This document shows positions 7,574-41,920 of a stretch of 64,000 nt of DNA, in pieces. How positions within the stretch are numbered: the first letter of the stretch is position 1; each line of letters begins with the position of its first letter. A model generated the notes under the pieces. The model made no database searches. It saw nothing but the letters and a program-made list of their open reading frames with translations, and was not told where the DNA came from. The position numbers and the translations under genes are program-made. This DNA comes from an uncultured Candidatus Saccharibacteria bacterium (GTDB lineage: Bacteria > Patescibacteriota > Saccharimonadia > Saccharimonadales > Saccharimonadaceae): assembly GCA_964538665.1 (NCBI GenBank), contig CAZIEB010000001.1:7031-71030 (forward strand), in the 5' to 3' direction.

Positions 7574-7712
7574 TACAGTAATCACTTTCGTCATAACCTA
7601 CTCTCCACCACGGGTATAGCTAAAAGGGCGAGTGAAACAAACATTACACAAAACACATTAGTGGAGAGACGTACATGACCAATCTTCGGGGGATTACTAC
7701 AAACTTACCGGT

Positions 7713-23126: not shown

Positions 23127-23135
23127 GCTTTCATT

Positions 23136-26100
23136 TTACCTGTTACTGAAGATAAAGTTCAAGTTACCTATATATGCGTTCGAGTTTTGGCTTGCAGTAA
23201 CATTAATTCGAAACACAATACTGTTGCCTGGAGCAAAGCCACAGGTTGAAGGATCAGCCGTTCCGGTGGCTAAACCTGTTTGCCACGACGCCACGGCACC
23301 TGAAGATACCTGTACGAGCGGACCGCAGGTTGTTAGGCCTGAGGCTTGATCATTTTTATACACCTGGTATTCCACGGTTGAGTTAGCACTGTCTGTCAGC
23401 CCCATAATGGAAGTGGTACCTGATTCGAAGGTCTTAAAGGTTGCTGGTAATTGATAGGTAACATACACGCTATATGTTTGAGCGCTTGGTTGAGGGGATG
23501 ACCAACGATAAAAATTGTAGGTTTCATTTGTACCGCATACGTCAGGTTGGCCAGATGTGCCGTCATTTATATTTAACGTATCTGAACAAAGATCCGAGAC
23601 CATTGTTCCTATACCGGTGCCATGTAGCACCGCGTTTGTAAATTCTGGTGCAATAGTTACGACGGTATTTGGACTTGAGCCACAGGCTCCCCAACCATCT
23701 GCCTCATAGCACTGTAACTTACCAAGCGTCGTATCATAATACATCGAGCCTAATAGTGCATCGTTGTTTATAGCAATCGGAGCAGATGCTGCTTTGTCTA
23801 GTGTGAGCAGTGTAGTAGGGCCACCATTCTCTCCACCCCCGATTTGTACGTTCGGAGCGGTGTTGGTGGTTAAGGTCATCGTGAATGCATCGACATTGAA
23901 CGTACGGGCTGCCGAAGCTTCTCCAACAAAATATACATGGGGATTAGTTGCAACCGTGGCATCTGTTTGTATAAAACAAGTTACTTTCGTCCACTGAGAT
24001 GTTGATATTGATCTGGTGTTGTAGTCGACGCAGTCAATATAGTTGCCTCCCGCCGTCGTACTGCCATCTCGAGAATAGCGGATCTTAAAGTCATTGAATG
24101 TGCCTGATGCTACCTTAGCGTAGGCGGTGATACGATACAGCGTGCTAGGCAGCGGGTTCAAAGATAGTTTATTACGAATACCAGCGTTTGCCGCACCTGC
24201 AGAAATTGAAACTCTGGCGCTATCACTTGCATCTTCACCATCGGTAGTACTACGAGTGACAGAGCCTGTCCCTAACCCTGCGTAGAGCCAGTTGGTTGCG
24301 AAGTTATCACCATCTAAGACGCTACCGTCCGTCGCGTAATTAAAATCTGCGGCTATCGTAATACTGAGATTATCAATAAAGAATGTACGAGCTGTGCCTG
24401 CAGACGCTTGTCGTATCATCAATGAGTTATTTGCAGTAATTCCACCTGAAGGTGCTGTGAATGAACAATTTATCTTTGTCCATATGCTCGTTATAGCTGC
24501 CTTAGCAGTTGCGCATTGGGCATTTGCACTTGTTCCGTCAGCTGAATAGTAGACTTCCATATCGGTAAACGTGCCTGATGCCAAACGAGTCGTGAATGAC
24601 ACATTGTACATCATGTTAGGGGATAACTGCGCTTTTAAGCGGTTCGCTACGCCACTATTGATAGAAGTAGATGTAGCAACCGATACCGATCCTTGACCTG
24701 TTGCGATAAAGTTACCAGGGGTCGTGTATCGAGTTACCGATGCACCTGATAAAGCCGACCATGTATTAGCTGGGAACGTGGTTGATGAAGTCCCCGCCGT
24801 TTCTGCGCCGCCGTTTGAAACATACTCCGTAACATTACTATTGACAGAGAGCAAGCCGGCTGCGGAGGAGCTTTGTACGCTCAATAAAGTCCCGTTAACC
24901 GGATCGATAGAACTGTCACGGATAGTCAGACCGTTGGTTGCAGAGGTTTTACTAACGACTAATTCGGCCCCACCAGCACTCTGCAACGTGTTGTCGTAGG
25001 CCGCTTGTAATGTCGTAGAGCTAGAAGCGCCTGATACGGTCCATGCCGATCCATTCCAGACCATCGTGGCGCTACTGTTTTTGCGCATCGCAACAAGATT
25101 TCCTTGTCCACCGCCATTGATTGACAGCTGGAAGTCCTTCGTGGCGTTTGATGCAGTGATATAGACAATTCGTCCTGCTGTAGTGATAGTCGGGTTTGGC
25201 ATAAACGCTGTTTGACCATCATTGGTAAAGCCTACAATTACTGAACCGTTGTTGTTGACCGAGCTTTGTTGAATAGTACAGTTGCTTGTAGTTGTGGTCT
25301 CGGCGCCCCCCGGGAAACAACTCGCATCATTACCAATGGTCTGATAGGCAGCAGTTCCCAATATGACAAGTCCGTTTGATACATTACCTGAGCCTCCAGA
25401 AAGTGTTAGATTACCACCATATTGAGCGCTACCCCCTGCGTTACCACCTTGTACGCTCACATTACCGCCGTTGCCGGTACCATTGCCTGATGCGCCTTGA
25501 ATACTAAGGGCACTACCTTGAGTGTCTGCGCTCGTTTGCGAGGCAGCTTGTAGCGTTGTAGGACTGCTAGCAACTCCGAGCGTTATTTGTGTGGCGCTGA
25601 GGACTAATGAAGCGCTCCCACTTGAGTTGCCTATTGTAACGCCGGTTGCATTTGTTAATCCTATACTAAGGTTTGCACCAGTAGCCGTGTCAATAACTGG
25701 TGTGAGCAAGCCGCTATCAACTCGTGCAGTGCCGCCAATCCAAAAGTTCGCCGCGGTTTGGACGCTTGCGTTTTGATTTTGGATGAAGTCTCCAGCTGTT
25801 TTTCCGCCTAGTTGTAGCGCATTCATCGCGTAAGGCACAGCAGACAATCGTTTCATCGGGACCATTTCACCATCGCCGCCACAGCTACTAAACGGCGTAC
25901 AGCTGACATTGGTATTCCCGATATTCATGCTGAGCCAAAGGGTGTCTTGGTTCCAGTCAATACTGCTGCCAAATGCAGTGACCGAACCAAGTTCGACGGA
26001 CATAAATCCATTGCGCACTAACACGCCCTGAGAGGCGGAATTTATATGATCTTCGGTCCATAGGAGGGTGCCGCCTGGGTTGCCAACGGCGGTACCGGTG

Positions 26101-26315
26101 CCATCTTGGTATATCTTAAATTGGACATTGTAATAACCGTCTGGAACAGTAGCACCAGACGCAGTAAATAGCCGCCCTTGAAAATTGATCGTTTGATTTA
26201 TTCCAGGAGCAGCAGATGATGTCGTAGACCATACGCCACTTAGAGCAACACTACTCATAACGAGCAGTACTACGATAGCAGAGAATAGACGCCGTGGTGA
26301 CACGCCCGAGAACAT
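23136..26315 (-). CDS. Secreted 1059-aa surface protein: tail-fibre-like N-terminal module, Gly/Ser/Thr-rich beta region and two CBM4/9-like jelly-roll modules
   Basis: Signal peptide ...VALSGVWSTTSSAAPG. INFQGRLFTASGATVPDGYYNVQFKIYQDG...LLWTE...NGFMSVELG resembles the N-termini of tail-fibre-domain proteins. Two roughly 150-aa modules end FFIDNLSITIA and FNVDAFTMTL. Confidence 0.75.
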   Translation of the reverse strand: MFSGVSPRRLFSAIVVLLVMSSVALSGVWSTTSSAAPGINQTINFQGRLFTASGATVPDGYYNVQFKIYQDGTGTAVGNPGGTLLWTEDHINSASQGVLVRNGFMSVELGSVTAFGSSIDWNQDTLWLSMNIGNTNVSCTPFSSCGGDGEMVPMKRLSAVPYAMNALQLGGKTAGDFIQNQNASVQTAANFWIGGTARVDSGLLTPVIDTATGANLSIGLTNATGVTIGNSSGSASLVLSATQITLGVASSPTTLQAASQTSADTQGSALSIQGASGNGTGNGGNVSVQGGNAGGSAQYGGNLTLSGGSGNVSNGLVILGTAAYQTIGNDASCFPGGAETTTTSNCTIQQSSVNNNGSVIVGFTNDGQTAFMPNPTITTAGRIVYITASNATKDFQLSINGGGQGNLVAMRKNSSATMVWNGSAWTVSGASSSTTLQAAYDNTLQSAGGAELVVSKTSATNGLTIRDSSIDPVNGTLLSVQSSSAAGLLSVNSNVTEYVSNGGAETAGTSSTTFPANTWSALSGASVTRYTTPGNFIATGQGSVSVATSTSINSGVANRLKAQLSPNMMYNVSFTTRLASGTFTDMEVYYSADGTSANAQCATAKAAITSIWTKINCSFTAPSGGITANNSLMIRQASAGTARTFFIDNLSITIAADFNYATDGSVLDGDNFATNWLYAGLGTGSVTRSTTDGEDASDSARVSISAGAANAGIRNKLSLNPLPSTLYRITAYAKVASGTFNDFKIRYSRDGSTTAGGNYIDCVDYNTRSISTSQWTKVTCFIQTDATVATNPHVYFVGEASAARTFNVDAFTMTLTTNTAPNVQIGGGENGGPTTLLTLDKAASAPIAINNDALLGSMYYDTTLGKLQCYEADGWGACGSSPNTVVTIAPEFTNAVLHGTGIGTMVSDLCSDTLNINDGTSGQPDVCGTNETYNFYRWSSPQPSAQTYSVYVTYQLPATFKTFESGTTSIMGLTDSANSTVEYQVYKNDQASGLTTCGPLVQVSSGAVASWQTGLATGTADPSTCGFAPGNSIVFRINVTASQNSNAYIGNLNFIFSNR

Positions 26316-26485: not shown

Positions 26486-27445
26486 TTAGGTGACGAGTTG
26501 CCCGCGAACTCGGAGTATGTGTTTTTCGCGTTTTTCACCAAGCCAAAAACTTATCACCGCTGTGATAATCGCCGCATAGAGTGGCCATATGACGAGTAGG
26601 ATATGTCGCTGTGTCGTGGTGCTCTCAGCGACCGCAGCATCTGGTTGGCCATTGACGATGGCTGCGACCGTCATGAACGCGACTCGTCCATCAGCATCAC
26701 TCGCTTGGATAGTTATCTGGTATATGCCAGGTTTTTTATACGTGTGCGGTACCGAAAATCCAATATTATCACCGCGTGAGACGACAGAGTTTTCTGAGTC
26801 TCCCCACTGTACATTGACGGCATACGGTGGACGGCCGCCGATGAGATCAATCCGTAGAAGCATTTCTTGATCAGGAAACATGCCTCGATATACTGCGTCG
26901 GTATTGATAAGGAGTTGTGCTGCGCCGAAATCAAACGATGCGATAGGCCCGGCTTGCGTTGGAAGTGCGTCATAAAAGACGGTGACGATGTTTGAGTCTG
27001 GGCCTGGTTGATTGAGCGCATCATAGACGCGCGCGATGAGCCTATTCTCGCCGATAAGTAAGTCTATCTGCACTGAGTATGTACCGGTGCTACTACACGG
27101 AGTCGAGCCGGCAAAAATGTCATTTTTGAATATTTCAACTAGAGTATTTGGTGGACACGTACCCGTGACCTCTATCGGGGTTTCGATAAATCGCTGCCCA
27201 GTCGTCGGCGTGACGATAGTTGCGCCCGTCGTCGGTGGTTTTCCCGGCACAACTCCGGTGAGACCGACAGAGCCTGATTCTGGCCCATCGTATGGCGTCG
27301 CCGCACGGGTGACAGAATTGATAGTAAACATGACTAATACCACACCTATAACTGTAAGGATGATGCCTAGCATCCGGTAGGGTATCTGCTTTTGAGGTGT
27401 GTGTGTGTTTGTATGGCGTGGATGCAACGATTTGCGAGCCATCAT
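26486..27445 (-). CDS. Membrane protein with Ig-like and PKD-like domains
   Basis: N-terminal TM, then an Ig-like region. PKD-like PYAVNVQWGDSENS...HTYKKPGIYQITIQASDADG, then a C-terminal TM. Confidence 0.6.
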   Translation of the reverse strand: MMARKSLHPRHTNTHTPQKQIPYRMLGIILTVIGVVLVMFTINSVTRAATPYDGPESGSVGLTGVVPGKPPTTGATIVTPTTGQRFIETPIEVTGTCPPNTLVEIFKNDIFAGSTPCSSTGTYSVQIDLLIGENRLIARVYDALNQPGPDSNIVTVFYDALPTQAGPIASFDFGAAQLLINTDAVYRGMFPDQEMLLRIDLIGGRPPYAVNVQWGDSENSVVSRGDNIGFSVPHTYKKPGIYQITIQASDADGRVAFMTVAAIVNGQPDAAVAESTTTQRHILLVIWPLYAAIITAVISFWLGEKREKHILRVRGQLVT

Positions 27446-27451
27446 GCCATC

Positions 27452-27460
27452 AGTATAGCA
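27452..27460 (-). promoter_or_regulatory. Extended -10 (TGcTATACT within GCTCATGCTATACT), 6 nt upstream of ATG 27445
   Basis: Reverse complement of agtatagca, read directly. Confidence 0.45.
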
Positions 27461-27473
27461 TGAGCGTTACGGA

Positions 27474-28472
27474 TTAGCGACGACGCCGGCCACGGCTCTG
27501 GCTGAGCAAGCGATCATTGTATCGCTTGATAGCAATTCTCAGGATAAAGAAGAGTGCGACGAGGCCGAGGAGTATGCCGGCAATTAGCTTATACGGGATG
27601 ACCCAAAAACTTAGCTGTGAGGTCATTGTTTGACGGTTTTCGGCTGAGCCATAGGTAATTTCGAGATCGGCTGTGTAGCGACCAAATAACATTCGATTGC
27701 CAATTACGGTTTCATCGAGAGGTTGCTCGAATTTACGTGTGCTTCCAGGAAGAACATTACGGTTTTCGAGGTTGACATTGAGATTGGCTATCTTTTGGCC
27801 AAACATGTCTTTGATGCTGATTTGACCTCGTGGCTGTTCGTGTACATTACCCTCATTCTTGAGTCGCTCATAGAACATGATTGGAGCTGATTCGAATACC
27901 CACGAGCGGTTCTGGTCTTTTTCGACATAGAATTCCTCCACACTCATTGCTTCTTTGGCGTCTCCGTTGACCCTCAAAAGTACCAAAGTACCAAGACTTG
28001 CAGAGAGCGAAACACCAGTGCCGGATAGCTCAGGCGCTTCGGCAGTAAAGCGAATTACGCCGAAGTAACCGCCCGGTGCAGCGTTCGCCGGGATAGCGAT
28101 ATTAACAGTCAATTCTTCAATCTGACGAGGTTCTAGGGTGATTTCAGGTAGTGGCGAAATCCAGCTTTTGATAGAGTAGGGACTCTCTTCACCTTCCTCA
28201 ACCAAGATCTTAGGCGTGCCATCTTCTCCGGCAGCGACAAAGTCATTGATTTCATTTCGGACCAACAATCGCACCGGACTAATGTCACGTAGGCTAATTC
28301 GAGCTTCTACAGTCTCTCCAGGATTACCGCGTATGTCGAGTACTGGCGGTGCAATTTCAAGTGCTTGTCCGTTTCCTTGCTGAGGAGCTGATTGGCTCTG
28401 TGCAGAGACTGCAACGCTAGCGAGAGCCAGGAGTGCGATGCTACTAATCAAAATTCCGAGTATCTGCTTCAT
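27474..28472 (-). CDS. DUF916/DUF3324-like two-domain cell-surface protein with a C-terminal TM anchor
   Basis: Signal peptide, then two Ig-like-sized beta domains (…PGETVEARISLRD…; …IPANAAPGGYFGVIRF…), a C-terminal TM and an RGRRRR tail. The architecture resembles CscA-type proteins of WxL loci. It sits 3 nt downstream of the preceding paralog. Confidence 0.45.
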   Translation of the reverse strand: MKQILGILISSIALLALASVAVSAQSQSAPQQGNGQALEIAPPVLDIRGNPGETVEARISLRDISPVRLLVRNEINDFVAAGEDGTPKILVEEGEESPYSIKSWISPLPEITLEPRQIEELTVNIAIPANAAPGGYFGVIRFTAEAPELSGTGVSLSASLGTLVLLRVNGDAKEAMSVEEFYVEKDQNRSWVFESAPIMFYERLKNEGNVHEQPRGQISIKDMFGQKIANLNVNLENRNVLPGSTRKFEQPLDETVIGNRMLFGRYTADLEITYGSAENRQTMTSQLSFWVIPYKLIAGILLGLVALFFILRIAIKRYNDRLLSQSRGRRRR

Positions 28473-28475
28473 ATG

Positions 28476-29606
28476 CTAAAACAAGGCGGTACAGATGTAC
28501 GTTAGCGTGGTGGTATACGTACCAGGGGGCTGAACACCAGACACATTGACGATATATGAGGCGGTATAAATCTGTGAGTTAGTAGGTCCAGGGCTTGTGC
28601 CAACAGTACCAAGTGCGCCACCGGAGCTGGCGCTGTTGGCGACGGTCTCACCACTAACAAATTTGAACTGATCAACGGTCTGATAGCCTGTATTGGCTTG
28701 TGCTTTGAGGTCGGTACCATTTGACGCGGGCGACACCTCGGCACCAAAGGCCGGCGTTGAAGTCGCAACAGTGTTTGCACGAAGATTCATGCCGAACTCG
28801 CTTGTTCCGGGCGAGCCAGCGGCTTGTGTGGCCTTTGCGGGTATAGTGTTGCTTCCACTAGTCAGTGCGGGCCCGTTGACCGAAATTGTATAGCCTCTCT
28901 CAGCATTGGTGCTCGCAGCCATCTGAGATGTGGCAACGGCAGTATCTGTTGGCGAGAATAGTCGGTCGAACTCTATCGCTCCGGGCGTACTACTCGTACA
29001 GTTTGCGGCAACGGTCTCTCCTGTACAAAATATCAATGATTCTGGCATAACTCCACTGAGCACAATTTGCTCAGCGGTGCTAGCGGCGACGGTACCGTTG
29101 TCTACTGCACCTGTTGCACCATCTGTGCCTGTATAGGTGGTAATACGTACATAAAATGACTCATTGACAGTAGTTGGGTTTGTGACACCGAGTAGTTGGT
29201 AGGACAGTGCTGCTCCTGCTGTCACGCTGGCAGCGGTACGAGTGATGTACGGAGATCCGTTTGTGGTGTTGTTGAGCGTAAATCCAGTTGCACCAGACTG
29301 TGTACCCATAGTCGCGCTCGTTGTGACGAGGCCAGTCGGTGTCGTACATGTGCCTCCAGCTTCAGTACAGTATTCAAACCGTATCGATCCGATATTGCCG
29401 TTACCGACATTTGGGACAGTAAATTCATAGAAGTGGTTGACGTTACCACCGGCGAGTGAGCCGCCGTCGCCGCCCGCACCCTGCTGTAGCGTCAGTGAAC
29501 GAAGTGTTATTTGAGCAGCGGTCGCATTTCGCGACAGCATCAATGGGCTTGCTACCATCAAGAATAGCAGCAAAGCTGATAGGAACACCCTTCCACTTCG
29601 TCTCAT
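28476..29606 (-). CDS. Secreted beta-rich two-domain surface protein, paralog A2 (WxL-like C-terminal domain with Y in place of W)
   Basis: Signal peptide ...SRNATAAQ. Highly similar to 29861..31009. C-terminal domain motifs RGYTISVNGPALTSGSNTI and GTYTTTLTYICTALF. Confidence 0.7.
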   Translation of the reverse strand: MRRSGRVFLSALLLFLMVASPLMLSRNATAAQITLRSLTLQQGAGGDGGSLAGGNVNHFYEFTVPNVGNGNIGSIRFEYCTEAGGTCTTPTGLVTTSATMGTQSGATGFTLNNTTNGSPYITRTAASVTAGAALSYQLLGVTNPTTVNESFYVRITTYTGTDGATGAVDNGTVAASTAEQIVLSGVMPESLIFCTGETVAANCTSSTPGAIEFDRLFSPTDTAVATSQMAASTNAERGYTISVNGPALTSGSNTIPAKATQAAGSPGTSEFGMNLRANTVATSTPAFGAEVSPASNGTDLKAQANTGYQTVDQFKFVSGETVANSASSGGALGTVGTSPGPTNSQIYTASYIVNVSGVQPPGTYTTTLTYICTALF

Positions 29607-29613
29607 ACCTGTG

Positions 29614-29643
29614 ATTGTAGCATGAGCTTTTTAGGGGCGTCAA
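29614..29643 (-). promoter_or_regulatory. Promoter of paralog A2 (leaderless-type)
   Basis: Minus strand: TTGACG, 18 nt, TACAAT (within GCTCATGCTACAAT), then 7 nt to ATG 29606. Confidence 0.55.
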
Positions 29644-29860
29644 CAAATAATCCTCGCAGAAAGTACCATTTGCGCGATCAGTGAGTGTATCTGCGGTAAT
29701 TGATATAGCTTTAGAAGTCTAGTGTGATGCGGTCATGCTCAACTAAAAAGTCCTCCTCTCGGGTGTGTAGTATGGTTCGCAACACCGCCAGATACTGTCA
29801 GTGAAGACAGTATGTATGGCAGGTGTGTGGTGGATAACTTTCTATACATAGTAGAGTGAA

Positions 29861-31009
29861 TCAGAATGTTGCGGTACAGATGTATGTCAGTGTCGAGGTG
29901 TAGGTACCGGCAGGTTGGCTACCTGGGACATTTGCGATGTAGGCGACAGTAAATATCTGTGCGTCACTTGGACCGGCTGCGGTATTATCACTCGCGGCTA
30001 CAGTGTCACCCGACGTAAACTTATATTGCTCAGGTGTATCATAGCCAGTTGATGCCTGTCCGCGGTAGTTTGTGCCGTTCGGCGCAGGTGCTACTTCAAG
30101 GCCTACTGTAGGAGTAGTGATGTTTGCTTTGAGGTTGAGACCAAACTGTGCGGTACCAGGAACTGATATGCCGGCGGTATTCATACCAGCGATAGTGTTA
30201 GATCCTGAGGTGAGGGTTGGTCCGTTGACCGTGATGGCATAGCCCGCCCCCGCGTTGGTACTTGCAGCCATTTGGGATTGTGATATCGCAGTTGCCGTTG
30301 GCGAAAACAGCTGGTTGAAAGCGATAGTACCATCAGTTGCCGTCGAACAGTCAGGGACAGTACTTGTCGCGATATCGAGGCCAATTGTTTCGCCTGTGCA
30401 GAAGACGAGCGATTCGGGCATGACTCCGCTAAGGATGATAGGTTCGGCAGTGCTTGCGGCTACCGTACCGTTATCTTGAGGAATACCAGTGGCGGTTGTG
30501 TTTGCGTAGGTTAATATACGTACGAAGAAAGTCTTATTGGTATCGGGAACAGTTGGGCCATAGACTGGGTTGGTGATGCCGAGCAATTGATACGAGACCG
30601 CGCCTGATGCTGCGGCAGCCGTGCGAGTAAGATAAGGAGCACCGTTTGTTGTGGCATTGAGAGTAAAACCAGTTGCACCAGATTGAGTTCCCATTGTGGC
30701 GCTGGTCGTTACAAGTCCTGTTGGAGTAACACACGTCCCTAACCCGACGTCAGCTGCTGTTTCACAGTATTCAAACTTTATTGAACCGACTGTATTCGCG
30801 GGTAGGGTAAAGTTGAATAGGTGGTTAACGACGCCTCCAGGCTCTGATCCGCCGTCAGTGGCACCTGCTTGAAGAGTCAGGCTACGATTCGTAATTTGCG
30901 CGGCCGAGACCGGTGTATTCAGGAAAAATGGGCTAGCCGCCACTAATAATGCAAGCGCAACAAGCGACAAGCGCGAAACGATACGGTGAAATGTTTGTGG
31001 TGTTTTCAT
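29861..31009 (-). CDS. Secreted beta-rich two-domain surface protein, paralog A1
   Basis: Signal peptide ...NTPVSAAQ. Shares a 24-aa identical block TPTGLVTTSATMGTQSGATGFTLN with A2. The C-terminus is GTYTSTLTYICTATF. Confidence 0.7.
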   Translation of the reverse strand: MKTPQTFHRIVSRLSLVALALLVAASPFFLNTPVSAAQITNRSLTLQAGATDGGSEPGGVVNHLFNFTLPANTVGSIKFEYCETAADVGLGTCVTPTGLVTTSATMGTQSGATGFTLNATTNGAPYLTRTAAAASGAVSYQLLGITNPVYGPTVPDTNKTFFVRILTYANTTATGIPQDNGTVAASTAEPIILSGVMPESLVFCTGETIGLDIATSTVPDCSTATDGTIAFNQLFSPTATAISQSQMAASTNAGAGYAITVNGPTLTSGSNTIAGMNTAGISVPGTAQFGLNLKANITTPTVGLEVAPAPNGTNYRGQASTGYDTPEQYKFTSGDTVAASDNTAAGPSDAQIFTVAYIANVPGSQPAGTYTSTLTYICTATF

Positions 31010-31047
31010 GTGGTGGTTGTGTTTATTTTTTGAGGTGCTTTAGCCAC

Positions 31048-31077
31048 ACTGTAGCATGAGCATTTTGGCCATGTCAA
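31048..31077 (-). promoter_or_regulatory. Promoter of paralog A1
   Basis: Minus strand: TTGACA, 18 nt, TACAGT (within GCTCATGCTACAGT). The leader is about 30 nt with no SD. Confidence 0.55.
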
Positions 31078-31115
31078 CAATAATATGTATGAAAACTGTG
31101 GATAAGTCGTACTAT

Positions 31116-31847
31116 TCAGTATGTACCGGTCACGATAAGTGTTTGGTTGCTGCTGTATATCCCTCCCGGGGTGAGCTGTGCAACGTTAGCTATGTAGCTG
31201 ATAGTGTAGGTCGTCTGTCCAGAATTTTTATCGGCATAAGCGATAGTCTCACCGCTGACGTAGCGAAATTCGTTTGGTGTAGCATAGTTTGGTGCAATCA
31301 AGCCAAAGCCAAAATCACCGTTATTGAGATTTGAACCGAAAGATACCGGGACAGTATTTGCCACGAGGTTGATACCAAACTGTTCGACGCCAACTTGCGG
31401 TGTGGTGGTCGCGGACATTGCATCAATTGTCGAATTACTATTTGTGAGCGATGACCCTACCAGTTGGACTACATAGCCATATGTCGTGTAGTTTGAAACA
31501 CGAAACGATGCGGTCGCGGTAAGGGTGCTTGTTGGGCTAAAGGTTCCGAAATTTGCTGCACTCGTCAAGACCTCGAATGATAGGGCTGGATCAGGTGACG
31601 TATTGGTACCTGAATCAAGTTGGAAGTTTGCGCTCTGGGAGTTTCCGATTGCGATGTCACCTGTCGCGCCACGTGCCTCAAAATTTGAAGAGCTAGACTG
31701 CAGCATCCCACCAGTGCCTATGACCCCTTCATCAAACCGGTAATTGGGTGACTGTAATGACTGCGCAAACAGAGGAATAGGGAAGAATAATGCCCCGATG
31801 ACAGCTATTACACTCAAAACAATGACAAAACTCCGTGCCATAAGCAT
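31116..31847 (-). CDS. Shorter paralog (C-terminal domain type) of the A1/A2 surface proteins
   Basis: Signal peptide ...PIPLFAQS. YGYVVQLVGSSLTNSNSTI, EQFGINLVANT and the C-terminus GGIYSSNQTLIVTGTY parallel A1/A2. The start could be ATG 31847, ATG 31841 or TTG 31877. Confidence 0.6.
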   Translation of the reverse strand: MLMARSFVIVLSVIAVIGALFFPIPLFAQSLQSPNYRFDEGVIGTGGMLQSSSSNFEARGATGDIAIGNSQSANFQLDSGTNTSPDPALSFEVLTSAANFGTFSPTSTLTATASFRVSNYTTYGYVVQLVGSSLTNSNSTIDAMSATTTPQVGVEQFGINLVANTVPVSFGSNLNNGDFGFGLIAPNYATPNEFRYVSGETIAYADKNSGQTTYTISYIANVAQLTPGGIYSSNQTLIVTGTY

Positions 31848-31933
31848 TATTGTCACGTGTTGGCCGTCATTTTGCAAGTTGCGGTATCAGTACATAAGCG
31901 GTATAGTTACTATGGATACAATAAGACAAACAT

Positions 31934-32938
31934 ATGGATAGCACACAAAGTTCGGGGCCAAAACCCGAAGAACTCAAACCAGTAGAGGCGCCGGCGTCAC
32001 AGTCGGCTGCGCCGTCAATGAAGTCTGGCTATAAGTCTCGTCGAATTGCCTATCGTCCGACAAAACGAGCGACGTTTATCGGTATTGCGGTGATAATCGG
32101 TCTATTGGTCGCGCTCAGTGTTGGATTGTTCTTCCTCGTCAGGGGGCAGGGTGGTTTGCAGTCAGCGTTGTTTGGGGATCAAGTAGTGATAGACCCGGGG
32201 AGTCTCGAGTCACTAGGCGTGAGCCGCAATCAAGTCAGTACTCAAGGCGCTGAACTAATCATTGGGCCAAGTACTCGTTTCAATGGAAAAGTACAGTTGG
32301 GCGGTGACGTCAGCGTGGCGGGACAACTCCAGCTCAACAACGCACTGTCGGCCAGCTCGGCCAATCTCGGCAACGTCCAGGCTGCAAATGTATCGCTGGG
32401 GCAATTTACTGCCAGCGGCAATGGTACGGTCGGGACACTAAATGCTCGTCAGGACCTCAATGTTGCTGGTACGACTCGATTGCAGGGACCGGTTGCGATT
32501 GGTCAGCTGTTGACGGTAAACAACAACTTAAACGTTGCGGGCAACGTTGCGGTCGGTGGCACGCTCAGTGTGCGGAATTTTCAGGCCAGTAGCTTGACGT
32601 CTGATACGACATTGACAATAGGTGGTCACGTGATTACTCGAGGCGCTGCACCGGGTGTAAGCGCTGGTGGTGCAGTTGGTAGCAATGGGACCGTATCGAT
32701 CAGCGGCAATGATGCATCGGGTACGGTTGCGGTAAACACAGGCACTGGTGCGGGCAATGGTATCGTGGCGCAGGTGTCATTCACGCGTGCGTACTCATCA
32801 ACTCCACATGTTGTGATTACGCCTGTTGGCATTGGCGTAAAGTTTTTTGTCAATCGTAGCCCCAGCGGTTTTTCGATTGGGGTCAGTGAAGGTATGCCGC
32901 CAGGCGGGTTTGCCTTTGACTACATCGTCATGCAGTAG
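31934..32938 (+). CDS. Membrane-anchored protein with a beta-helix-like repeat region and an H-type-lectin-like C-terminus
   Basis: Cytoplasmic basic N-terminus and one TM. Repeats of the type G(D/N)V(S/A)V(A/G)G.L.V. The C-terminus is VAQVSFTRAYSSTPHVVITPVG...NRSPSGFSIGV...FDYIVMQ. Confidence 0.5.
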   Translation: MDSTQSSGPKPEELKPVEAPASQSAAPSMKSGYKSRRIAYRPTKRATFIGIAVIIGLLVALSVGLFFLVRGQGGLQSALFGDQVVIDPGSLESLGVSRNQVSTQGAELIIGPSTRFNGKVQLGGDVSVAGQLQLNNALSASSANLGNVQAANVSLGQFTASGNGTVGTLNARQDLNVAGTTRLQGPVAIGQLLTVNNNLNVAGNVAVGGTLSVRNFQASSLTSDTTLTIGGHVITRGAAPGVSAGGAVGSNGTVSISGNDASGTVAVNTGTGAGNGIVAQVSFTRAYSSTPHVVITPVGIGVKFFVNRSPSGFSIGVSEGMPPGGFAFDYIVMQ

Positions 32939-35490
<2,552 letters not shown>

Positions 35491-35491
<1 letters not shown>

Positions 35492-36993
35492 TATTTCTTC
35501 TCCTTGGCATCAGTCTTTGCGTCGTCTTGGGCGGGTGGCGGTGATGTTTTATCAGCTTCTTTACGGACAGCCGCAAGCGGCGCTGCAGCAAATTGCGACA
35601 GTAGTTCAGCTTCGATTGCATCATAATCTGATTCTTGCGTAACGCGGCCAGCAGCCTCGCGAACGGCTTTTTTGAGACCGACAACGTCTATAGGCCGATC
35701 ATCCTGACTCGACATAATCGTCTCGAGCATGAGCTGCTGCTCAACGAGTGAATGGAGTTCTTCGGGTGGTTGCTGCAGGGCCATGTAGAGATGCTTGCCG
35801 CGGGCTAGATCGAGTCGAGCTTCTTTGCTGAGCTGGCTGGAAAAGTGAGAGAATTCTTCGGCTTGGTGGTATTTTGCGAGTGATTTGAAAAGAGCAGTCG
35901 ATAGTTGCTTTTGACGTTTGTTTTGGGCTTGACCACCGACGCGTGACACCGACAAACCGGCGTTGACGGCTGGACGAACACCTTTGCGGAAAAAACCAAG
36001 ATCGAAGATGATCTGCCCGTCTGTAATCGACATGATGTTGGTCGAAAGATATGCCGTAATATCGTCGTTTGGCGTTAGGACGACCGGGAGGCTTGTCAGT
36101 GTCTTGTCATTCGAGAGTAGTCGCCCAGCTCGCTCTAATAGGCTTGAATGGGTGTAGAAAATATCACCAGGGTAGCTATCTCGGCCTGGGTCTACTTCCT
36201 GAAGCAGTGATAATTGTCGATAGGCTTCAGCGTGTGAGCTGAGATCGTCATAAATGATAATGACATCTCGGCCGCTGTACCATAGGTTTTCCGCCATGGC
36301 GCAGGCTGCATAGGGCGCAAGGTAGCTCTGCGTCAGTGAATCGAAGATGTTGGCAAAGACAACGATAGTGCTTTTCATCGCGCCTGATGATTTGAGGCCG
36401 GCAAGCAATCGTTCGACATCAACTTTACGTTTGCCGATAAGTACGTATACGACGAGTCGGTCTGTCTCTTGTTGGTTTGCGCTTAGCTGAGACAAAAATG
36501 TACTTTTTCCTGATTTGCTATCACCAAGAATTGCGATACGTTGCCCAAGGACTATCGGGAAGAAACTATCGACTGCAGTCACGCCGCTTTCGAGCTGCTG
36601 GTCGAGCACTTTTCTGTCCATAATGCCCGGTGCGGCTGAAAAAATGCCAGATGACTGTGCGGTTTGGACAGGCCCGGCGCCATCAAGCGGTGTCCCCATT
36701 GGGCTAATCACGCGTCCGACAAGTTCGGGACCGACCGGTACTTGGAGCATGTCGTGCTGCACCACGGCGAGCGTGCCGATTGGCAAAATTTCAGAGTCGA
36801 TATTGTACAGAATGACTTTGTCGCCGTAGGTCTCACGTACGATACCTCGTTGGCCATCTTCGAACAACACTTGCGCTCCGATTTTTACGCCATGGAGGCC
36901 TTTGACCTCAACAATAAATCGATTGACCGCAACGACTTGGCCTGTCAGATTGTCAGACTCAACCAACGACTGGAACTGTGCGGTATCAAACAC
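35491..36993 (-). CDS. atpA: F1 ATPase alpha subunit (divergent) with a Lys/Ala/Pro-rich C-terminal tail
   Basis: GDSKSGKST P-loop, IIIYDDLSSHAEAYRQLSLL and PGDIFYTHSSLLERAG. Preferred start is GTG 36993 (GGAGG 9 nt upstream, overlapping the atpH stop). The track start is TTG 37011. Confidence 0.85.
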
Positions 36994-37474
36994 GACGAAG
37001 TACCTCCGCAAACTCGTAGCGGTTTGTCAGCAGTGCACGTCGAAACGACCAGTCGTATACATGACTACCGTAGCGTATGACCATGCCGCCAAGCAGTGTT
37101 GCGTTGAAGCGAAAATCTATCAATGTTGCATCGTGTAGCTCTTTTCGGCACCATTTTGCAATTGTTTGTTGCAGTTGGCGTGAGGGCGGGGCGGCGAGCG
37201 TGACGGTCATAGTCGGGGAAGTCTGCCTGAGACTCCGGACATCTTGGAGCAGTTGATCAAGGATTTGGAAACTCAAACGGTTGTTCTCGGCGACCTGCTG
37301 CAATAGAGAAATTGCCGTTTGGCTGAGGCCGGGCATCATCGTGCCTTTTGACAAATGAAGCTCTTGTTTGATCGCATTATGACGAAACCAGTCACCGTAG
37401 GACATCAGCTCCATTTCGAGCTCAGCAATATCGCGCGGAGAGATGATTGTTGCTGGCAGTACGAGTTTAGCCAT
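36986..37474 (-). CDS. atpH: ATPase delta (OSCP) subunit
   Basis: Start ATG 37474 overlaps the atpF stop (ATGGCTAA). The C-terminal LIDFRFNATLLGGMVIRYGSHVYDWSFRRAL matches the delta pattern ...GG..v..g....D.S....L. Confidence 0.7.
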   Translation of the reverse strand: MAKLVLPATIISPRDIAELEMELMSYGDWFRHNAIKQELHLSKGTMMPGLSQTAISLLQQVAENNRLSFQILDQLLQDVRSLRQTSPTMTVTLAAPPSRQLQQTIAKWCRKELHDATLIDFRFNATLLGGMVIRYGSHVYDWSFRRALLTNRYEFAEVLRRV

Positions 37475-38222
37475 TGCCCTGTACCTCGCGCTTGAGTTCT
37501 TCTTTGTGTGTTTCGAGTAGTTCAAGTAGGTATGGTGTTTGTGCACCTAAATCAACATTTGAACCGAGCGCCTCAACGAGAAACGACCCCATCGCATCAC
37601 CGAGTTTGACATCGATTTGGTGCAGTAAAAGCTCACGTTCTTTGGCAATTTCTTCATCCAGCCGGACGTCGAGTGCTTGCTCGCGCTCGGCGATTTTTTG
37701 TGTGAACAGCTCTTGCCGTTGGGTAAGGGTTGTTTGGATTGACTCTAGTGATTTTGACAGAGATGCTTCAAGTCTAGATTGATGCTCGGCGAGTCGTTCG
37801 TTGAGCTCGTCGCGACGAAGCTGCAATTCGTTATCGAGTGACGTTTGACGTGCAGTAATGTGCGAATGACTGCTTGCAGCCTCTGCCTCAATTCGCTTGC
37901 GTATGAGCTCAATATTTCTACGAAATACTATCATTTCGTTCTCGAGAATTTCAGTACCGGCCTCAGCAAGATATCGATTGAGGTTTTTGGCCGTCGTGTT
38001 CATTTCATTTGACATTGCAGCGCTCGACGAATCAAGAGCTTGCAACAGGTGGTCTTTCGCCGCGATAGACAATTCTTGGCGGAGTTCATCGCTCAGGATG
38101 CTGTTTTGGTGTGTGGGTGATTTGTGTCCATGCTCACGTATGTGGCGGGCGGCGATAGAGACAACCACACCGAGCAAGAATACATTTGCCAAGAGGAGAA
38201 GTTGGAGTATATCTGGTCCCAT
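37467..38222 (-). CDS. atpF: ATPase peripheral-stalk subunit b, unusually long (251 aa)
   Basis: Single N-terminal TM (LQLLLLANVFLLGVVVSIAA), then about 210 aa of charged coiled-coil. Located directly upstream of atpH. Confidence 0.65.
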   Translation of the reverse strand: MGPDILQLLLLANVFLLGVVVSIAARHIREHGHKSPTHQNSILSDELRQELSIAAKDHLLQALDSSSAAMSNEMNTTAKNLNRYLAEAGTEILENEMIVFRRNIELIRKRIEAEAASSHSHITARQTSLDNELQLRRDELNERLAEHQSRLEASLSKSLESIQTTLTQRQELFTQKIAEREQALDVRLDEEIAKERELLLHQIDVKLGDAMGSFLVEALGSNVDLGAQTPYLLELLETHKEELKREVQGNG

Positions 38223-38223
38223 C

Positions 38224-39045
38224 TTATAACCTCGTCAATACAAAATAAATTATGACCAGACTCACCGCCAGTATTGCGATTACAAGCGCCGACATCTGCA
38301 CAAGTCCACGATAAATTGCTGACTGACTCATAGGATTTCGACCGACAGATATGATGCTGTGACGAATCATCGAGTAGATAATACTGACGACAACGATGAG
38401 CGTGATGATAAATATCGCGGCACTGATGAGTATAGGCAACGTGCTGACTTCTCTGCCGGCAAAGGCATTCGCAACGTTTTGGATGGCAGCCGGCACGATT
38501 GTTTTTTCAGGCTCCTGGAAGAAGTAGGCGACACCTACAAGGAGCGGTACTTGGCCGAGCTGGACTTCCTTTTCCTGGCCATCGCGGTCTTTGACAGTTT
38601 GGGATTGGATGCGATCGAGTTCGCCCTGTGCGATACCGATGACTCGTACATTTGACGTTGCCTTCATACCGACACCGGGTATCGGAGATGCGGTGATGTG
38701 GTCGCCGCGCTTGATCTCACCGTTGATATCTGACGCCATTACCGGTACTGTGCCCGACGTTGCGACTTGGACTTCTTTCTCGCCACCGTTAGAAATAGAG
38801 AGGAGTGAGCTATCTCCGGTCACGACAACCCCAAATATAGACTCGATATTTTGTGAGTTTGCGACTTCAACCGTATCTGCCGTATCTTTTTTGAGACTGA
38901 CAATTGAGCCTATTGAGGGTTTATCTGTTTCGTAGGTATACCCTTCGGTGAGAGGGCTGAGTGCAAGCATGGTTGGAGCAATGACAAGCCCCCCTAGGAC
39001 GCTCGCTACAACCAAAATATGCCGTTTGTTCCATGCCCACATCAC
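38224..39045 (-). CDS. First gene of the atp operon: TM, beta-rich ectodomain and a C-terminal c-subunit-like helical hairpin lacking the ion-binding carboxylate
   Basis: 1-nt gap to atpF. GTG 39045 or ATG 39042. C-terminal ...SIIYSMIRHSIISVGRNPMSQSAIYRGLVQMSALVIAILAVSLVIIYFVL has a G-R-N-P loop between two TM helices. Confidence 0.6.
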   Translation of the reverse strand: MMWAWNKRHILVVASVLGGLVIAPTMLALSPLTEGYTYETDKPSIGSIVSLKKDTADTVEVANSQNIESIFGVVVTGDSSLLSISNGGEKEVQVATSGTVPVMASDINGEIKRGDHITASPIPGVGMKATSNVRVIGIAQGELDRIQSQTVKDRDGQEKEVQLGQVPLLVGVAYFFQEPEKTIVPAAIQNVANAFAGREVSTLPILISAAIFIITLIVVVSIIYSMIRHSIISVGRNPMSQSAIYRGLVQMSALVIAILAVSLVIIYFVLTRL

Positions 39046-39055
39046 GATTACGTTT

Positions 39056-39061
39056 ATTATA
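39056..39061 (-). promoter_or_regulatory. -10 box TATAAT for the atp operon
   Basis: Reverse complement of attata. It lies 10 nt upstream of GTG 39045 and 13 nt upstream of ATG 39042. Confidence 0.4.
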
Positions 39062-39122
39062 ACAGAGGCACGTGGTGGCGGCTATCACAATATACGAAGG
39101 CGAGCTAGAGAGGGGCACTCTC

Positions 39123-39633: not shown

Positions 39634-39779
39634 TATTTCTCCTTCTACGTGGTGTTACGTGGTGGTGAGTACTATGGTAGCGGTATCCCGTGCGTACAGA
39701 TATGGTGCACCACACATTGCAAATGTGACCTAGATTACATTTGACTCTTAACTTCTTTGGTAAAATTGACATTGTTGTT

Positions 39780-41561
39780 ATGAAAAAAACATTTCGAGAG
39801 CTTCTGGATGAAGGTTCACGCTTCATAAAAGTACCGATGATTGTCGGTGCATTGGTGATTGCAGCTGGCGTACTAGCAACATACGCGTTTGCTGACTTCT
39901 TGGCGACCAGAGCAGCTGATGATTTCCAGCAGTCTACCGAAGAACAAATCACAATTTTTGCGGGAAACATCGAAGCTCGGACGACCGAGTTTGAGCAAAT
40001 TCTTTTGCTACTTGCTGCGTATAGGAGGTCGATGCCTGAGGTGTCACAAGCGAGTTGGTCGGGTTTTATCGATGAGAGCCAAGTCATCGCCCGGCATCCT
40101 TTTATACTCGGGATTGGGTATGTTGATGCAGTGCCGCCGGACCAACTGCAGCAATACATCCAGAATCGTCAAGAAACACGACCGGGATTTCAAATTACCC
40201 CTGAAGGCCAACGTGACTTTTATACCGCAATTCGCTACTTAGAGCCGGCCAATGAGGTCAATGAACGAGCAATTGGGTTTGATATGTTTTCTGAGAGCAC
40301 TCGTCGACAAGCCATGGCAAAAGCTCGAGATGAAGCAAAGGCAAGCATGACAACTCCAGTTGAACTTGTTCAAGACGAGGGTGACGCCAATCAACAAGGG
40401 GTATTGGTGTATTATCCAATCTACGCGGCACCAACATCACCAGAGTCTATACCAGAGCGGCGTGAACAATTGCGTGGGTTCACCTATATCGTGTTTCGGC
40501 CGAGTGATCTCATTCGGTATATAGAGCAGACAGAAGGGAGTGATCAGCTGAGGTCGTCTTCTTTTGTCGTAAGCGATACGTCGACGGGTAAGATTATGGC
40601 AAATCAAGTCTATACGCCTGCGGCGCGTGAGACTCAGTACGATGCGGCGCGCCAATCAACGATTATCGACAAGCAGTGGAGTGTTGCACTGTCGTTGTAT
40701 CAGCCGGCGCTGCAACGATTTACAGCGCCTGGGGTCACCTTTTTGCTCGGTATTGCAACGAGTTTTGCGATAGGTGGAAGTGTCGCCTATCTCATGACGC
40801 GGCGGCTTATACGCCTCGATGCACAGCATCAAACAGAGCTACAGCGCACCAAGGATGAGTTACTCGCACTGACATCTCATCAGTTGCGGACTCCAGCAAG
40901 TGGCGTCAAACAATATATCGGGATGCTGCTCCAAGGCTTTGTGGGACAGCTCTCACCGGAGCAGGAAATCATTGCCAAAAAAGCCTTTGCGGCGAATGAA
41001 CGTCAACTCGAAACCATCAACCAGCTCCTCCATGTTGCCAAAGCTGATGCAGACCAGTTGGTGCTCCAAAAAGAGGTGCTAGACCTCACGCTTCTCACTG
41101 AGCAAGTGATTGATAGCATGCATAATGATGTCGAAGACCATCAAGCCGAAATCATTGTCAAAGCCCCAAAGAAAAAACCGGTATTGGTACATGCCGATGA
41201 GCGATATCTGCGGATGGTACTCGAAAATCTCTTGTCAAACGCGCTCAAGTATTCTGAAAAAGGTACTCCAATTACTGTCACTGTATGCGCCCGTAAAGAA
41301 GTTGCACTGCTATCTGTCCGTGATCGTGGAGTCGGTATCGAGGAAGCTGATATCGAAAGGTTATTCAAAAAGTTTTCACGTATTCCAAACGAGTTTTCAA
41401 AAACTGTTGGGGGTTCTGGGCTCGGGTTATTTTTGGCCCAACAAATTATGGTTGCGCATGGCGGAGATATTGAAGTCGACTCAAAACCGGGTCGAGGTAG
41501 TATATTTACCCTCACTCTTCCGACTGCGCCCACATCATTAGTAAACAAGGAGAAAGCATGA
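39780..41561 (+). CDS. Sensor histidine kinase with an extracytoplasmic CHASE domain
   Basis: CHASE-like block GIGYVDAV...YTAIRYLEPANEVNERAIGFDMFSE..RRQAMAKARDE...GVLVYYPIY between two TMs. H-box LTSHQLRTP. N/G boxes LLSNALKYS and GGSGLGLFLA. An alternative TTG start lies at 39741. Confidence 0.85.
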   Translation: MKKTFRELLDEGSRFIKVPMIVGALVIAAGVLATYAFADFLATRAADDFQQSTEEQITIFAGNIEARTTEFEQILLLLAAYRRSMPEVSQASWSGFIDESQVIARHPFILGIGYVDAVPPDQLQQYIQNRQETRPGFQITPEGQRDFYTAIRYLEPANEVNERAIGFDMFSESTRRQAMAKARDEAKASMTTPVELVQDEGDANQQGVLVYYPIYAAPTSPESIPERREQLRGFTYIVFRPSDLIRYIEQTEGSDQLRSSSFVVSDTSTGKIMANQVYTPAARETQYDAARQSTIIDKQWSVALSLYQPALQRFTAPGVTFLLGIATSFAIGGSVAYLMTRRLIRLDAQHQTELQRTKDELLALTSHQLRTPASGVKQYIGMLLQGFVGQLSPEQEIIAKKAFAANERQLETINQLLHVAKADADQLVLQKEVLDLTLLTEQVIDSMHNDVEDHQAEIIVKAPKKKPVLVHADERYLRMVLENLLSNALKYSEKGTPITVTVCARKEVALLSVRDRGVGIEEADIERLFKKFSRIPNEFSKTVGGSGLGLFLAQQIMVAHGGDIEVDSKPGRGSIFTLTLPTAPTSLVNKEKA

Positions 41562-41920
41562 AGAAAAAAGTATTAATTATAGAAGACGATCAAGCGCTCA
41601 ACGATGCGTTTGAGCTCGTATTATCAAAAGACTATGAGGTGGATACTGCCTACGACGGCAAAGAAGCCCTCGAGCTGACCGATAAAAAAACGTATGACGT
41701 GATTTTGCTTGATTTATTGATGCCAATTATGGACGGCAAAGCTTTCCTGCGGGCGTTTGACAACAAGCATGAGACACCAATCATTGTGTTTAGCAATCTT
41801 GATGCAAAGAGTGATATCGAAGAAGTATCTCAGTTAGGGGCGACTCGCTATATGCTCAAAAGCTGGGCATCGCCAAAGGAATTATTGCGGCTCGTCGAAG
41901 ATACGCTCAGCGGAGCGTGA
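41558..41920 (+). CDS. Stand-alone response-regulator receiver (CheY-like)
   Basis: ATGA overlap with the kinase gene. VLIIEDD...DVILLDLLMPIMDG...FSNL...K. No output domain. Confidence 0.85.
   Translation: MKKKVLIIEDDQALNDAFELVLSKDYEVDTAYDGKEALELTDKKTYDVILLDLLMPIMDGKAFLRAFDNKHETPIIVFSNLDAKSDIEEVSQLGATRYMLKSWASPKELLRLVEDTLSGA

Follow-up and report, generated by a model that had tools for sequence, protein, structure and literature searches.

An uncultured Candidatus Saccharibacteria bacterium (contig CAZIEB010000001.1, positions 7,031 to 71,030; this whole stretch of 64,000 nt is the window referred to below) carries on its minus strand seven open reading frames (ORFs) that run from 39045 down to 32939 and encode, in this order, a protein of 273 residues that we call X273, a b-like peripheral-stalk candidate, and delta, alpha, gamma, beta and epsilon subunits of an F1-like ATPase. 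The stop codon of X273 lies 1 nt ahead of the b-like gene, and the remaining genes of the operon abut or overlap. A first-pass annotation, made from the letters of the window alone, had described such a run of seven genes ending in the canonical order b-delta-alpha-gamma-beta-epsilon, with X273 in the slot normally held by the genes for subunits a (atpB) and c (atpE); its coordinates proved right, and the slot is held by X273 in every locus that we read. We argue that bacteria of the candidate phyla radiation (CPR) have in this operon a second rotary ATPase, F1-like and distinct from the ATP synthase of the cell, a reading from sequence that we hold with somewhat more belief than doubt.

Relatives of X273 fell into 1559 protein clusters at E <= 1e-3, all of them unnamed, and a scan of one genome per species in GTDB placed them in 359 species. 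Among these, 80 loci were returned, every one from Saccharibacteria/Saccharimonadales, from unclassified Patescibacteria or from metagenome-assembled genomes labelled plainly 'bacterium'; with L001 and L002 included, the set of related loci numbers 82. As far as the contigs extend, the order X273, b-like, delta, alpha, gamma, beta, epsilon was found in 82 of the 82, with gene junctions mostly of -11 to +7 nt and with the b-like gene behind X273 in 80. A sister clade, which we call type II, added six operon loci from among the newly fetched loci L083-L094, and across the 82 and the six the X273 homologues stood in no case away from atp-like genes, a placement that the first-pass annotation had left to be checked. 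We also considered the operon as a degenerate relic and rejected this account, the catalytic motifs, the R-N-P loop of X273 and the synteny being strongly conserved in hundreds of species.

The five subunits from delta to epsilon each matched Pfam and NCBIfam families, and all five scored under the NCBIfam equivalog cut-offs (Table 1). The best matches of beta in the PDB were F1 beta subunits, at 380-395 bits, and the full-length 50%-identity cluster representatives beyond the family were all at most 49% identical to it. Across about 75 orthologues, alpha keeps the P-loop GDSKSGKS and the Arg-finger segment RPAVN, and beta keeps GGAGVGKT and GVGERxREG with its catalytic Glu, these motifs being at least 90% conserved in nearly all columns. 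With all catalytic motifs of alpha and beta thus retained, the F1 head looks active. Epsilon consists of the N-terminal beta-sandwich only, without the C-terminal helical domain (orthologue median 87.5 aa), and the C-terminal tail of beta is of low complexity. Comparison with orthologues suggests that the longest ORFs of delta and beta probably begin some 24-26 codons too early: delta would start about 24 codons downstream, its orthologues having about 162 aa, and beta near 34629. X273 itself probably starts at the ATG at 39042, giving 272 aa.

Next to X273 the first-pass annotation had placed atpF. The position of this gene and the architecture of its product, namely one N-terminal transmembrane (TM) helix, a long coiled coil and the conserved C-terminal motif F-L..L....VDLGAQ..YL...LE.HK, speak for that assignment; family membership does not, as ATP-synt_B was matched in neither Pfam nor NCBIfam and a PDB profile search gave apolipoproteins and, at E 0.07, chloroplast b'. 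The length of the b-like protein ranges from 122 to 346 aa across the loci, cut-off ORFs included. Its coiled coil varies greatly in length and in some species, as noted for L034:10863-11900 and other b-like genes, contains internal repeats (up to 346 aa), which is unexpected for a stalk of fixed reach.

Table 1. Coordinates, in the window, of the genes and elements of the X273 operon and its neighbourhood, with the best family matches
Feature	Position	Strand	Remarks
X273	38224..39045	-	first operon gene, 273 aa from GTG; no Pfam or NCBIfam match
b-like peripheral-stalk candidate	37467..38222	-	251 aa; by position and architecture only
delta (OSCP)	36986..37546	-	PF00213 at 2.7e-10; TIGR01145 40 bits, below cut-off of 57.5
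F1-like alpha	35491..37011	-	PF00006 at 8.5e-65; NCBIfam atpA 395 bits, cut-off 484
F1-like gamma	34622..35491	-	PF00231 at 8.4e-28; TIGR01146 77 bits, cut-off 194
F1-like beta	33199..34707	-	PF00006 at 3.2e-64; TIGR01039 448 bits, cut-off 463
short epsilon	32939..33202	-	87 aa; PF02823 at 7.9e-13; 37.5 bits, NCBIfam cut-off 67
extended -10 element TGTTATAAT	39056..39064	-	holds TATAAT 39061-39056; 10 nt upstream of GTG start
CHASE-domain histidine kinase and response regulator	39741..41920	+	CHASE, HisKA and HATPase_c domains; divergent from operon
membrane-anchored beta-helix protein	31934..32938	+	convergent; weak Bactofilin match 1.3e-4, below threshold
Pam pilus operon	26486..31877	-	complete-looking; NCBIfam models released in 2026
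PamT	31116-31877	-	NF058579 272.7 bits, cut-off 240
Pam pilins (two)	29861-31009 and 28476-29606	-	NF058581 151 and 133 bits, cut-off 55
332-aa protein	27474-28472	-	weak WxLIP_PGBD match
PamR	26486-27445	-	NF058578 347 bits, cut-off 300

Scans of Pfam and NCBIfam with X273, with its C-terminal hairpin and with its ectodomain gave no family match, ATPase_gene1 (AtpI/AtpZ) included. In an alignment of 115 homologues the protein shows an N-terminal hydrophobic segment, a conserved ectodomain and a near-invariant C-terminal stretch with the consensus ...SMIRsSIISVGRNPMSQSAiYRdLiQ.SaLV.... The hydrophobic segment ends in an AxA motif directly before a conserved T-x-I-S-E/Q-G-Y, and we infer that it is a cleaved signal peptide. 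An AlphaFold2 model computed with this alignment reached a mean predicted local distance difference test score (pLDDT) of 87.9 and replaced an earlier run with 32 close homologues, which at pLDDT 65 was too weak. The model bears out the beta-rich ectodomain and two-helix C-terminal hairpin of the first-pass annotation: a beta-rich domain at residues 32-175 (ectodomain of about 170 aa) is followed by a short helix and by helices 202-234 and 239-272, the block-mean pLDDT of the hairpin being 73-97. Foldseek aligned the ectodomain with phage capsid decoration or cement proteins of the PDB, that of the Borrelia phage BB1 at E 4e-5 along with phi29 gp8.5, T1, TW1 and P21 SHP, and among viral models with 'preneck appendage' and tail proteins at E 3e-9. 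Two X273 homologues gave marginal Pfam matches to Phage_cement and XM1_gp53, in agreement with this fold. Thus, as modelled, the ectodomain is a phage-decoration-like fold.

The hairpin has several features of subunit c. Its two helices measure about 33 aa each; both termini are predicted outside the cell and the loop in the cytoplasm, as judged from the modelled helices, the signal peptide and ectodomain ahead of them and the Arg-rich loop. The loop reads R-N-P in 203 of 203 family members, lies 25-45 aa from the C-terminus and aligns with the RQP of c subunits, so that the cytoplasmic R-(Q/N)-P loop is common to both; the G-R-N-P already recognised in the window as a c-type loop is invariant in X273. 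The gene slot, immediately upstream of the stalk gene, is also that of subunit c in the canonical atpIBEFHAGDC operon, and from b through delta, alpha, gamma and beta to epsilon the genes downstream follow the canonical order. The two proteins differ in the membrane. Where subunit c has Glu or Asp, X273 has Leu or Ile, and the ion-binding carboxylate found in the middle of c helix 2 is missing from the family, and in none of the 203 sequences do the membrane stretches of the two hairpin helices contain Asp or Glu; the sole Asp/Glu site after the loop lies at +9 from the loop Pro, at the cytoplasmic end, and is so occupied in 157 of 203 sequences and by Gly in the window. The GxGxGxG packing motif of c helix 1 is likewise absent from the family, which has a Ser-rich face instead. 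In lacking both the carboxylate and the glycine motif, the family as a whole behaves as the first reading had described for the single window sequence. The operons differ as well, there being here no a subunit nearby, no C-terminal helices on epsilon, and F1 subunits that stay below the equivalog cut-offs.

Evidence on the ancestry of the hairpin came from the type-II clade, which was reached by following the closest beta subunits outside the family. Its beta subunits are 43% identical to that of the window and include a protein named for 'Parcubacteria group bacterium CG2_30_36_18'. The six type-II operons encode an X protein of about 250 aa, b-like, delta, alpha, gamma, beta and a short epsilon, again without a or c. 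Type-II X has no Pfam match and is homologous to the X273 family over 215 columns (hhalign probability 98.5%, E 2.6e-15); its helix 1 keeps only GGGSF..G of the c packing motif. When a profile of the six type-II hairpins was searched against 177,635 distinct PDB sequences, the top five matches were F-type c subunits, at E 0.014-0.11, with the entire hairpin in register and the c-ring Glu opposite Leu. Against a validated c-subunit alignment the type-II hairpin gave an hhalign probability of 70% and E 4e-5, a similarity as strong as that to the X273 hairpins (66%, E 5.8e-5). In the reverse search, with a c-subunit hidden Markov model (HMM) run against every ORF of L083-L094, the six type-II X proteins were the only ones selected, at E 0.003-0.28. 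The hairpin profile of the window family gave no PDB match at E <= 10, and against the c alignment an hhalign probability of 2.3%, its 28 aligned columns setting RNP on RQP. A joint MAFFT alignment of the hairpins of both clades put gaps inside the helices and was discarded. Since type-II X is homologous to X273 and the type-II hairpin matches subunit c in both search directions, there is, by way of the sister clade, moderate evidence, short of proof, that the X273 hairpin descends from subunit c with loss of the ion-binding residue. The c-like resemblance proposed from the window is therefore upheld by profiles through the sister clade only: there the hairpin matches c subunits, and the window family's own hairpin profile gave nothing, just as X273 itself matched neither ATP-synt_C nor ATPase_gene1.

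Type-II operons are flanked by genes for a response regulator, a histidine kinase and a tetratricopeptide repeat (TPR) protein, and at several loci also by FtsW, LigA and type IV pilin genes. Among the fetched loci two further observations were made. The type-II beta subunit P0444 (L087) is labelled 'Candidatus Humimicrobiaceae' by NCBI while its close relatives are labelled Parcubacteria group, which reflects either a binning error or a wider distribution. At L085:5567-7513 a 648-aa beta-like ATPase subunit, 45% identical to the window beta, lies beside glucose-6-phosphate dehydrogenase and away from the usual alpha and gamma genes, and tblastn places an unannotated epsilon-like stretch just downstream of it (7613-7828).

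The absence of a and c genes from the window, asserted in the first-pass annotation, was confirmed. Neither the window nor the 82 related loci, taken with flanks of 10 kb, gave a match in an unfiltered HMM search for subunit c. Of the ORFs in the window, five are multi-TM; they match a sodium/glutamate symporter, MFS, a Na/Ca exchanger, VIT and, weakly, signal peptidase S26, none of them ATP-synt_A, and no subunit a is annotated in the gene tables of L001, L002 or the six type-II operon loci. Canonical genes do exist in the phylum: Southlakia epibionticum has an operon of atpZ, atpB, atpE, atpF, atpH, atpA and further genes with a single alpha/beta pair (PMC10633639 supplements), and its gamma subunit scores 3.5e-82 in Pfam against 8.4e-28 for the window gamma, the canonical set being far stronger overall. 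Counts of KEGG orthology (KO) terms in complete Saccharimonadales genomes are informative here. S. aalborgensis, GWC2_44_17 and M. amalyticus each have one atpB, one atpE and one atpF and two each of atpA, atpD and atpG, whereas TM7x and RAAC3 have one each of all six (PMC12592800 Table S5). In the order CAILAD01, atpB, atpE and atpF were counted in 0 of 15 genomes, with alpha and gamma present in five, of which four have beta and three epsilon (PMC12592800 Table S5); the authors give these patterns no comment. This suggests that some CAILAD01 lineages kept only the F1-like machine.

Because three complete Saccharimonadales genomes hold two alpha/beta/gamma sets against one a/b/c set, the X273 operon is most likely a second, paralogous F1-like set beside a canonical F1Fo. 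The second set of M. amalyticus is probably of the X273 type, since a preprint on its Pam pili sets 'ATP synthase components' beside its pam operon and the Pam-adjacent set in the loci studied here is always of that type. The first-pass annotation had offered two alternatives, a proton path encoded elsewhere or an F1/stalk module coupled to an unconventional membrane partner. The latter is now the better supported. The picture implied by the annotation, of a lineage whose only synthase lacks a proton path, is probably wrong in view of the KO counts.

X273 is preceded by the TATAAT reported in the first-pass annotation, and an extended -10 motif, TGnTA[TC]A[AC]T, is shared by 72 of 81 related loci, against about 0.03 expected by chance per equivalent stretch. 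In the window clade just 10 nt separate the element from the start codon, a spacing that suggests a leaderless or near-leaderless mRNA. Genes upstream of X273 differ between loci and are mostly divergent; from the shared -10 motif, the variable upstream genes and the constant downstream order, X273 is read as the promoter-proximal gene of the seven-gene operon. A T-rich tract followed by TGCTATACT recurs upstream of X273 in L003-L082 and looks like a general Saccharimonadia extended -10 promoter.

Divergent from the operon in the window are a CHASE-domain kinase and response regulator, which may regulate it. A similar pair was seen in only 16-18 of the 82 Saccharimonadia loci; a histidine kinase and response regulator do stand beside the X-type operon in both clades (the window; L086, L087, L092, L093, L094), and L087 has the pair within the operon itself, between its alpha and gamma genes. 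Two other upstream neighbours named in the first-pass annotation were rejected as parts of the system. The 76-aa two-TM protein, taken as weakly AtpZ-like, matched no AtpZ/AtpI family, is present in only four of 82 loci and was dropped as a c or AtpZ equivalent. The YeaQ-like protein was correctly identified (Transgly_assoc at 2.8e-10), and its gene is no conserved neighbour, occurring in 16 of 82 loci in variable orientation.

Downstream of the ATPase genes the first-pass annotation missed a conserved Pam pilus operon, with PamT, two Pam pilins and PamR in the window and with a 332-aa product that may be a chaperone of PamC/D type. PamT and pilins follow the ATPase operon in 52 of the 53 loci with enough sequence. 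Between the two operons, directly after epsilon, lies the convergent beta-helix gene, present in 53 of the 53 GTDB loci with enough sequence; its product may be the 'tail fibre-like protein' of the Pam preprint. No Pam genes were found within 7-8 kb of the type-II operons. Beyond pam the minus-strand run of the window continues (16890-26315) with two giant predicted surface proteins, one of 2078 aa with many Kelch repeats and one of 1059 aa with a CBM_4_9 carbohydrate-binding domain, neither conserved in other loci.

Pam pili of Ca. M. amalyticus are donor-strand-exchange pili whose structure was solved by cryo-electron microscopy (June 2026; bioRxiv 10.64898/2026.03.03.709456). According to the sections of that preprint drawn on here, a PamA-centred neighbourhood analysis found that, across CPR lineages, genes for ATP synthase occur together with pam and belong to the core of its conserved surroundings, and the window agrees with that neighbourhood in having PamT, Pam pilins and PamR directly downstream of 'ATP synthase' genes. 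The same sections differ from our account in taking these genes as ATP synthase components that tie the pili to metabolism and ATP production, and they model pilus growth without dedicated or specialised trans-envelope machinery; in them there is no mention of missing a and c genes, of a second paralogous set or of the c-like fusion in X273 (bioRxiv 10.64898/2026.03.03.709456).

Among known systems the mycoplasma F1-like X0 ATPases offer the nearest precedent by analogy. Of these, Type 2 is the G1-ATPase in the gliding motor of M. mobile, and the MIB-MIP antibody-cleavage system requires Type 3 (PMC3369863, PMC12994834). Like the operon described here, they form seven-gene clusters in genome-reduced, host-dependent bacteria, extra to a canonical F1Fo (in our case as judged from the KO counts of other genomes), have subunits like alpha, beta, gamma and epsilon, whose catalytic motifs are intact, and no a or c, are genetically linked to surface effectors and are proposed to carry ATP-derived force across the membrane. 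Their partner proteins MMCAP2_0577 and MMOB1650 resemble X273 in having a signal peptide, an ectodomain and two C-terminal TM helices. However, the mycoplasma clusters encode a 12-TM protein and a small cytoplasmic subunit that are not found here, whereas the delta and b-like stalk kept here is found in no mycoplasma set; X273, at about 30 kDa, is also much smaller than the 85-127 kDa of the mycoplasma proteins, and its hairpin has a traceable similarity to subunit c. X273 and the b-like protein match no NCBIfam model. Against the mycoplasma models MSC_0618/0619 and MMOB1660/1670 we obtained 378, 263, 338 and 314 bits where the cut-offs are 570, 520, 850 and 600 (beta accounting for the 378 and alpha for the 263), so the window proteins fall outside those families. 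Phylum and effector, the Pam pili, are different too. The N-ATPase is likewise a second, divergent F-type operon coexisting with a canonical one; in it a and b are retained along with a c that binds ions, and AtpQ/AtpR come in addition (PMC2881411). The alt_F1F0 NCBIfam models of that system were second-best for beta, at 412 bits against a cut-off of 752, and all alt_F1F0 scores were far below their cut-offs.

Taken together, the sequence data indicate that the operon probably encodes a surface motor and not an ATP synthase, and their best reading is that this machine is driven by ATP, moves no ions and delivers force outside the cell. As we envisage it, X273 hairpins would assemble into a rotor resembling a c ring, with the R-N-P loops docking the foot of gamma and epsilon; ATP hydrolysis would turn or strain this ring while the b-like/delta stalk holds alpha3beta3. 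Nothing would be pumped, because there is neither an a subunit nor an ion-binding residue, and the work would be delivered outside the membrane by the crown of X273 ectodomains. In Saccharimonadia the likeliest recipient would be the Pam pilus apparatus, through its assembly, anchoring, tension or rotation, and elsewhere in the genome one would expect a canonical F1Fo complete with a, b and c genes of its own. The full picture, in which a CPR F-type ATPase turned into a rotary cell-surface motor, with a carboxylate-less c-like ring bearing extracellular beta-domains, spun by gamma and epsilon without ion flow and turning, extruding or tensioning a filament (the Pam pilus in Saccharimonadia), is a tentative one to which we give a rather low probability.

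Several points weigh against the motor. The X273 ring and its contact with gamma and epsilon are conjecture, and mechanically it is odd that b-like protein and delta should form a stator when there is no a subunit for it to keep at the ring. That the b-like protein spreads over more than a twofold range of length fits poorly with a rigid stalk. The hairpin profile of the window family itself has no similarity to subunit c, GxGxGxG is missing from helix 1, and the sister-clade link is only moderate (E about 0.01; probability 70%). Coexistence with a canonical operon rests on KO counts from genomes other than that of the window. Finally, the absence of Pam genes near type-II operons means that the pilus link is not universal, and the growth model in the cited sections of the Pam preprint needs no dedicated machinery.

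Three other explanations were weighed. The genes could be the only F1/stalk genes of the cell, parts of a split canonical ATP synthase with atpB and atpE elsewhere and with X273 as an accessory, for example an AtpI-like assembly or regulatory factor. Split atp operons do exist in other bacteria, the delta and b-like stalk is retained as expected of a true F1Fo, and our finding that a and c are absent covers the 64-kb window and not the rest of the genome. This explanation must nevertheless contend with the two alpha/beta/gamma sets per a/b/c set of complete related genomes, with the CAILAD01 genomes that keep alpha and gamma (and in four cases beta) where a, b and c are counted in none of 15, and with F1 subunits much more divergent than the canonical ones of Saccharibacteria; X273, moreover, carries a c-like hairpin, shows translational coupling with the stalk gene at each locus and has no Pfam match, the AtpI/AtpZ family ATPase_gene1 included. 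We consider it very unlikely. A more serious contender, though still an improbable one in our judgement, accepts the F1-like head as real and denies the rotor: X273 would form no ring, its TM helices would anchor the head or pass on a conformational change, and the c-like loop would be convergent. Relaying of a change in conformation through the membrane has been proposed for MMCAP2_0577 and MMOB1650 (PMC3369863, PMC12994834), whose topology X273 shares. The window family's lack of detectable c homology and of the helix 1 glycine motif would be natural on this account, and so would the decoration-type ectodomain. Phage decoration proteins usually act as trimers, and such a fold fits a ring of 8-15 copies poorly. 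What a non-rotary transducer leaves unexplained is that the sister-clade hairpin matches subunit c over its whole length, in register and in both search directions, that the rotor shaft of gamma and epsilon is retained and conserved, and that the invariant R-N-P is of the type by which c rings dock gamma and epsilon.

The pilus connection can be doubted separately, in that the proximity of pam might be incidental or merely regulatory and the ATPase might serve another envelope function unrelated to pili. The type-II clade would then be telling, having the same operon next to a two-component system, TPR, FtsW and LigA genes rather than pam; a convergent gene also parts the two operons in Saccharimonadia, and the Pam authors, in the sections cited, propose assembly without dedicated machinery. 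Yet, for all the high variability on the upstream side of the operon, 52 of 53 species-level loci keep the adjacency, the independent PamA-centred analysis puts ATPase genes at the conserved core, and the species counts are similar, with PamB reported there in 344 CPR genomes (bioRxiv 10.64898/2026.03.03.709456) and X273 in 359 species. An incidental neighbourhood therefore appears quite unlikely to us.

The proximity of the genes to pam is already in the preprint; the nature of the machine, as far as our literature search shows, has not been described, and that search found no paper joining F1-like ATPases with Patescibacteria, Saccharibacteria, CPR or TM7. CPR bacteria present an energy puzzle in that F-type genes are kept without respiratory chains. 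Of the many CPR 'F-type ATPase' genes at least some would belong to a machine without a proton path, and completeness tables that score 'F-type ATPase' by alpha, beta and gamma would then mislead; if the surface rotary motor is true, many of the 'ATP synthases' scored in CPR genomes without respiratory chains would not be ion-translocating. The operon would represent a second, independent re-use of F1 for a surface task in a reduced, host-dependent bacterium, after the mycoplasmas, and with its stalk kept and its rotor traceable to subunit c it would serve as a natural experiment in changing the output of rotary ATPases. For the Pam pilus, which is currently modelled without an energy source or platform, the operon offers a concrete candidate partner, and cultures as well as cryo-electron tomography images of the pilus-bearing Ca. 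Mycosynbacter amalyticus already exist.

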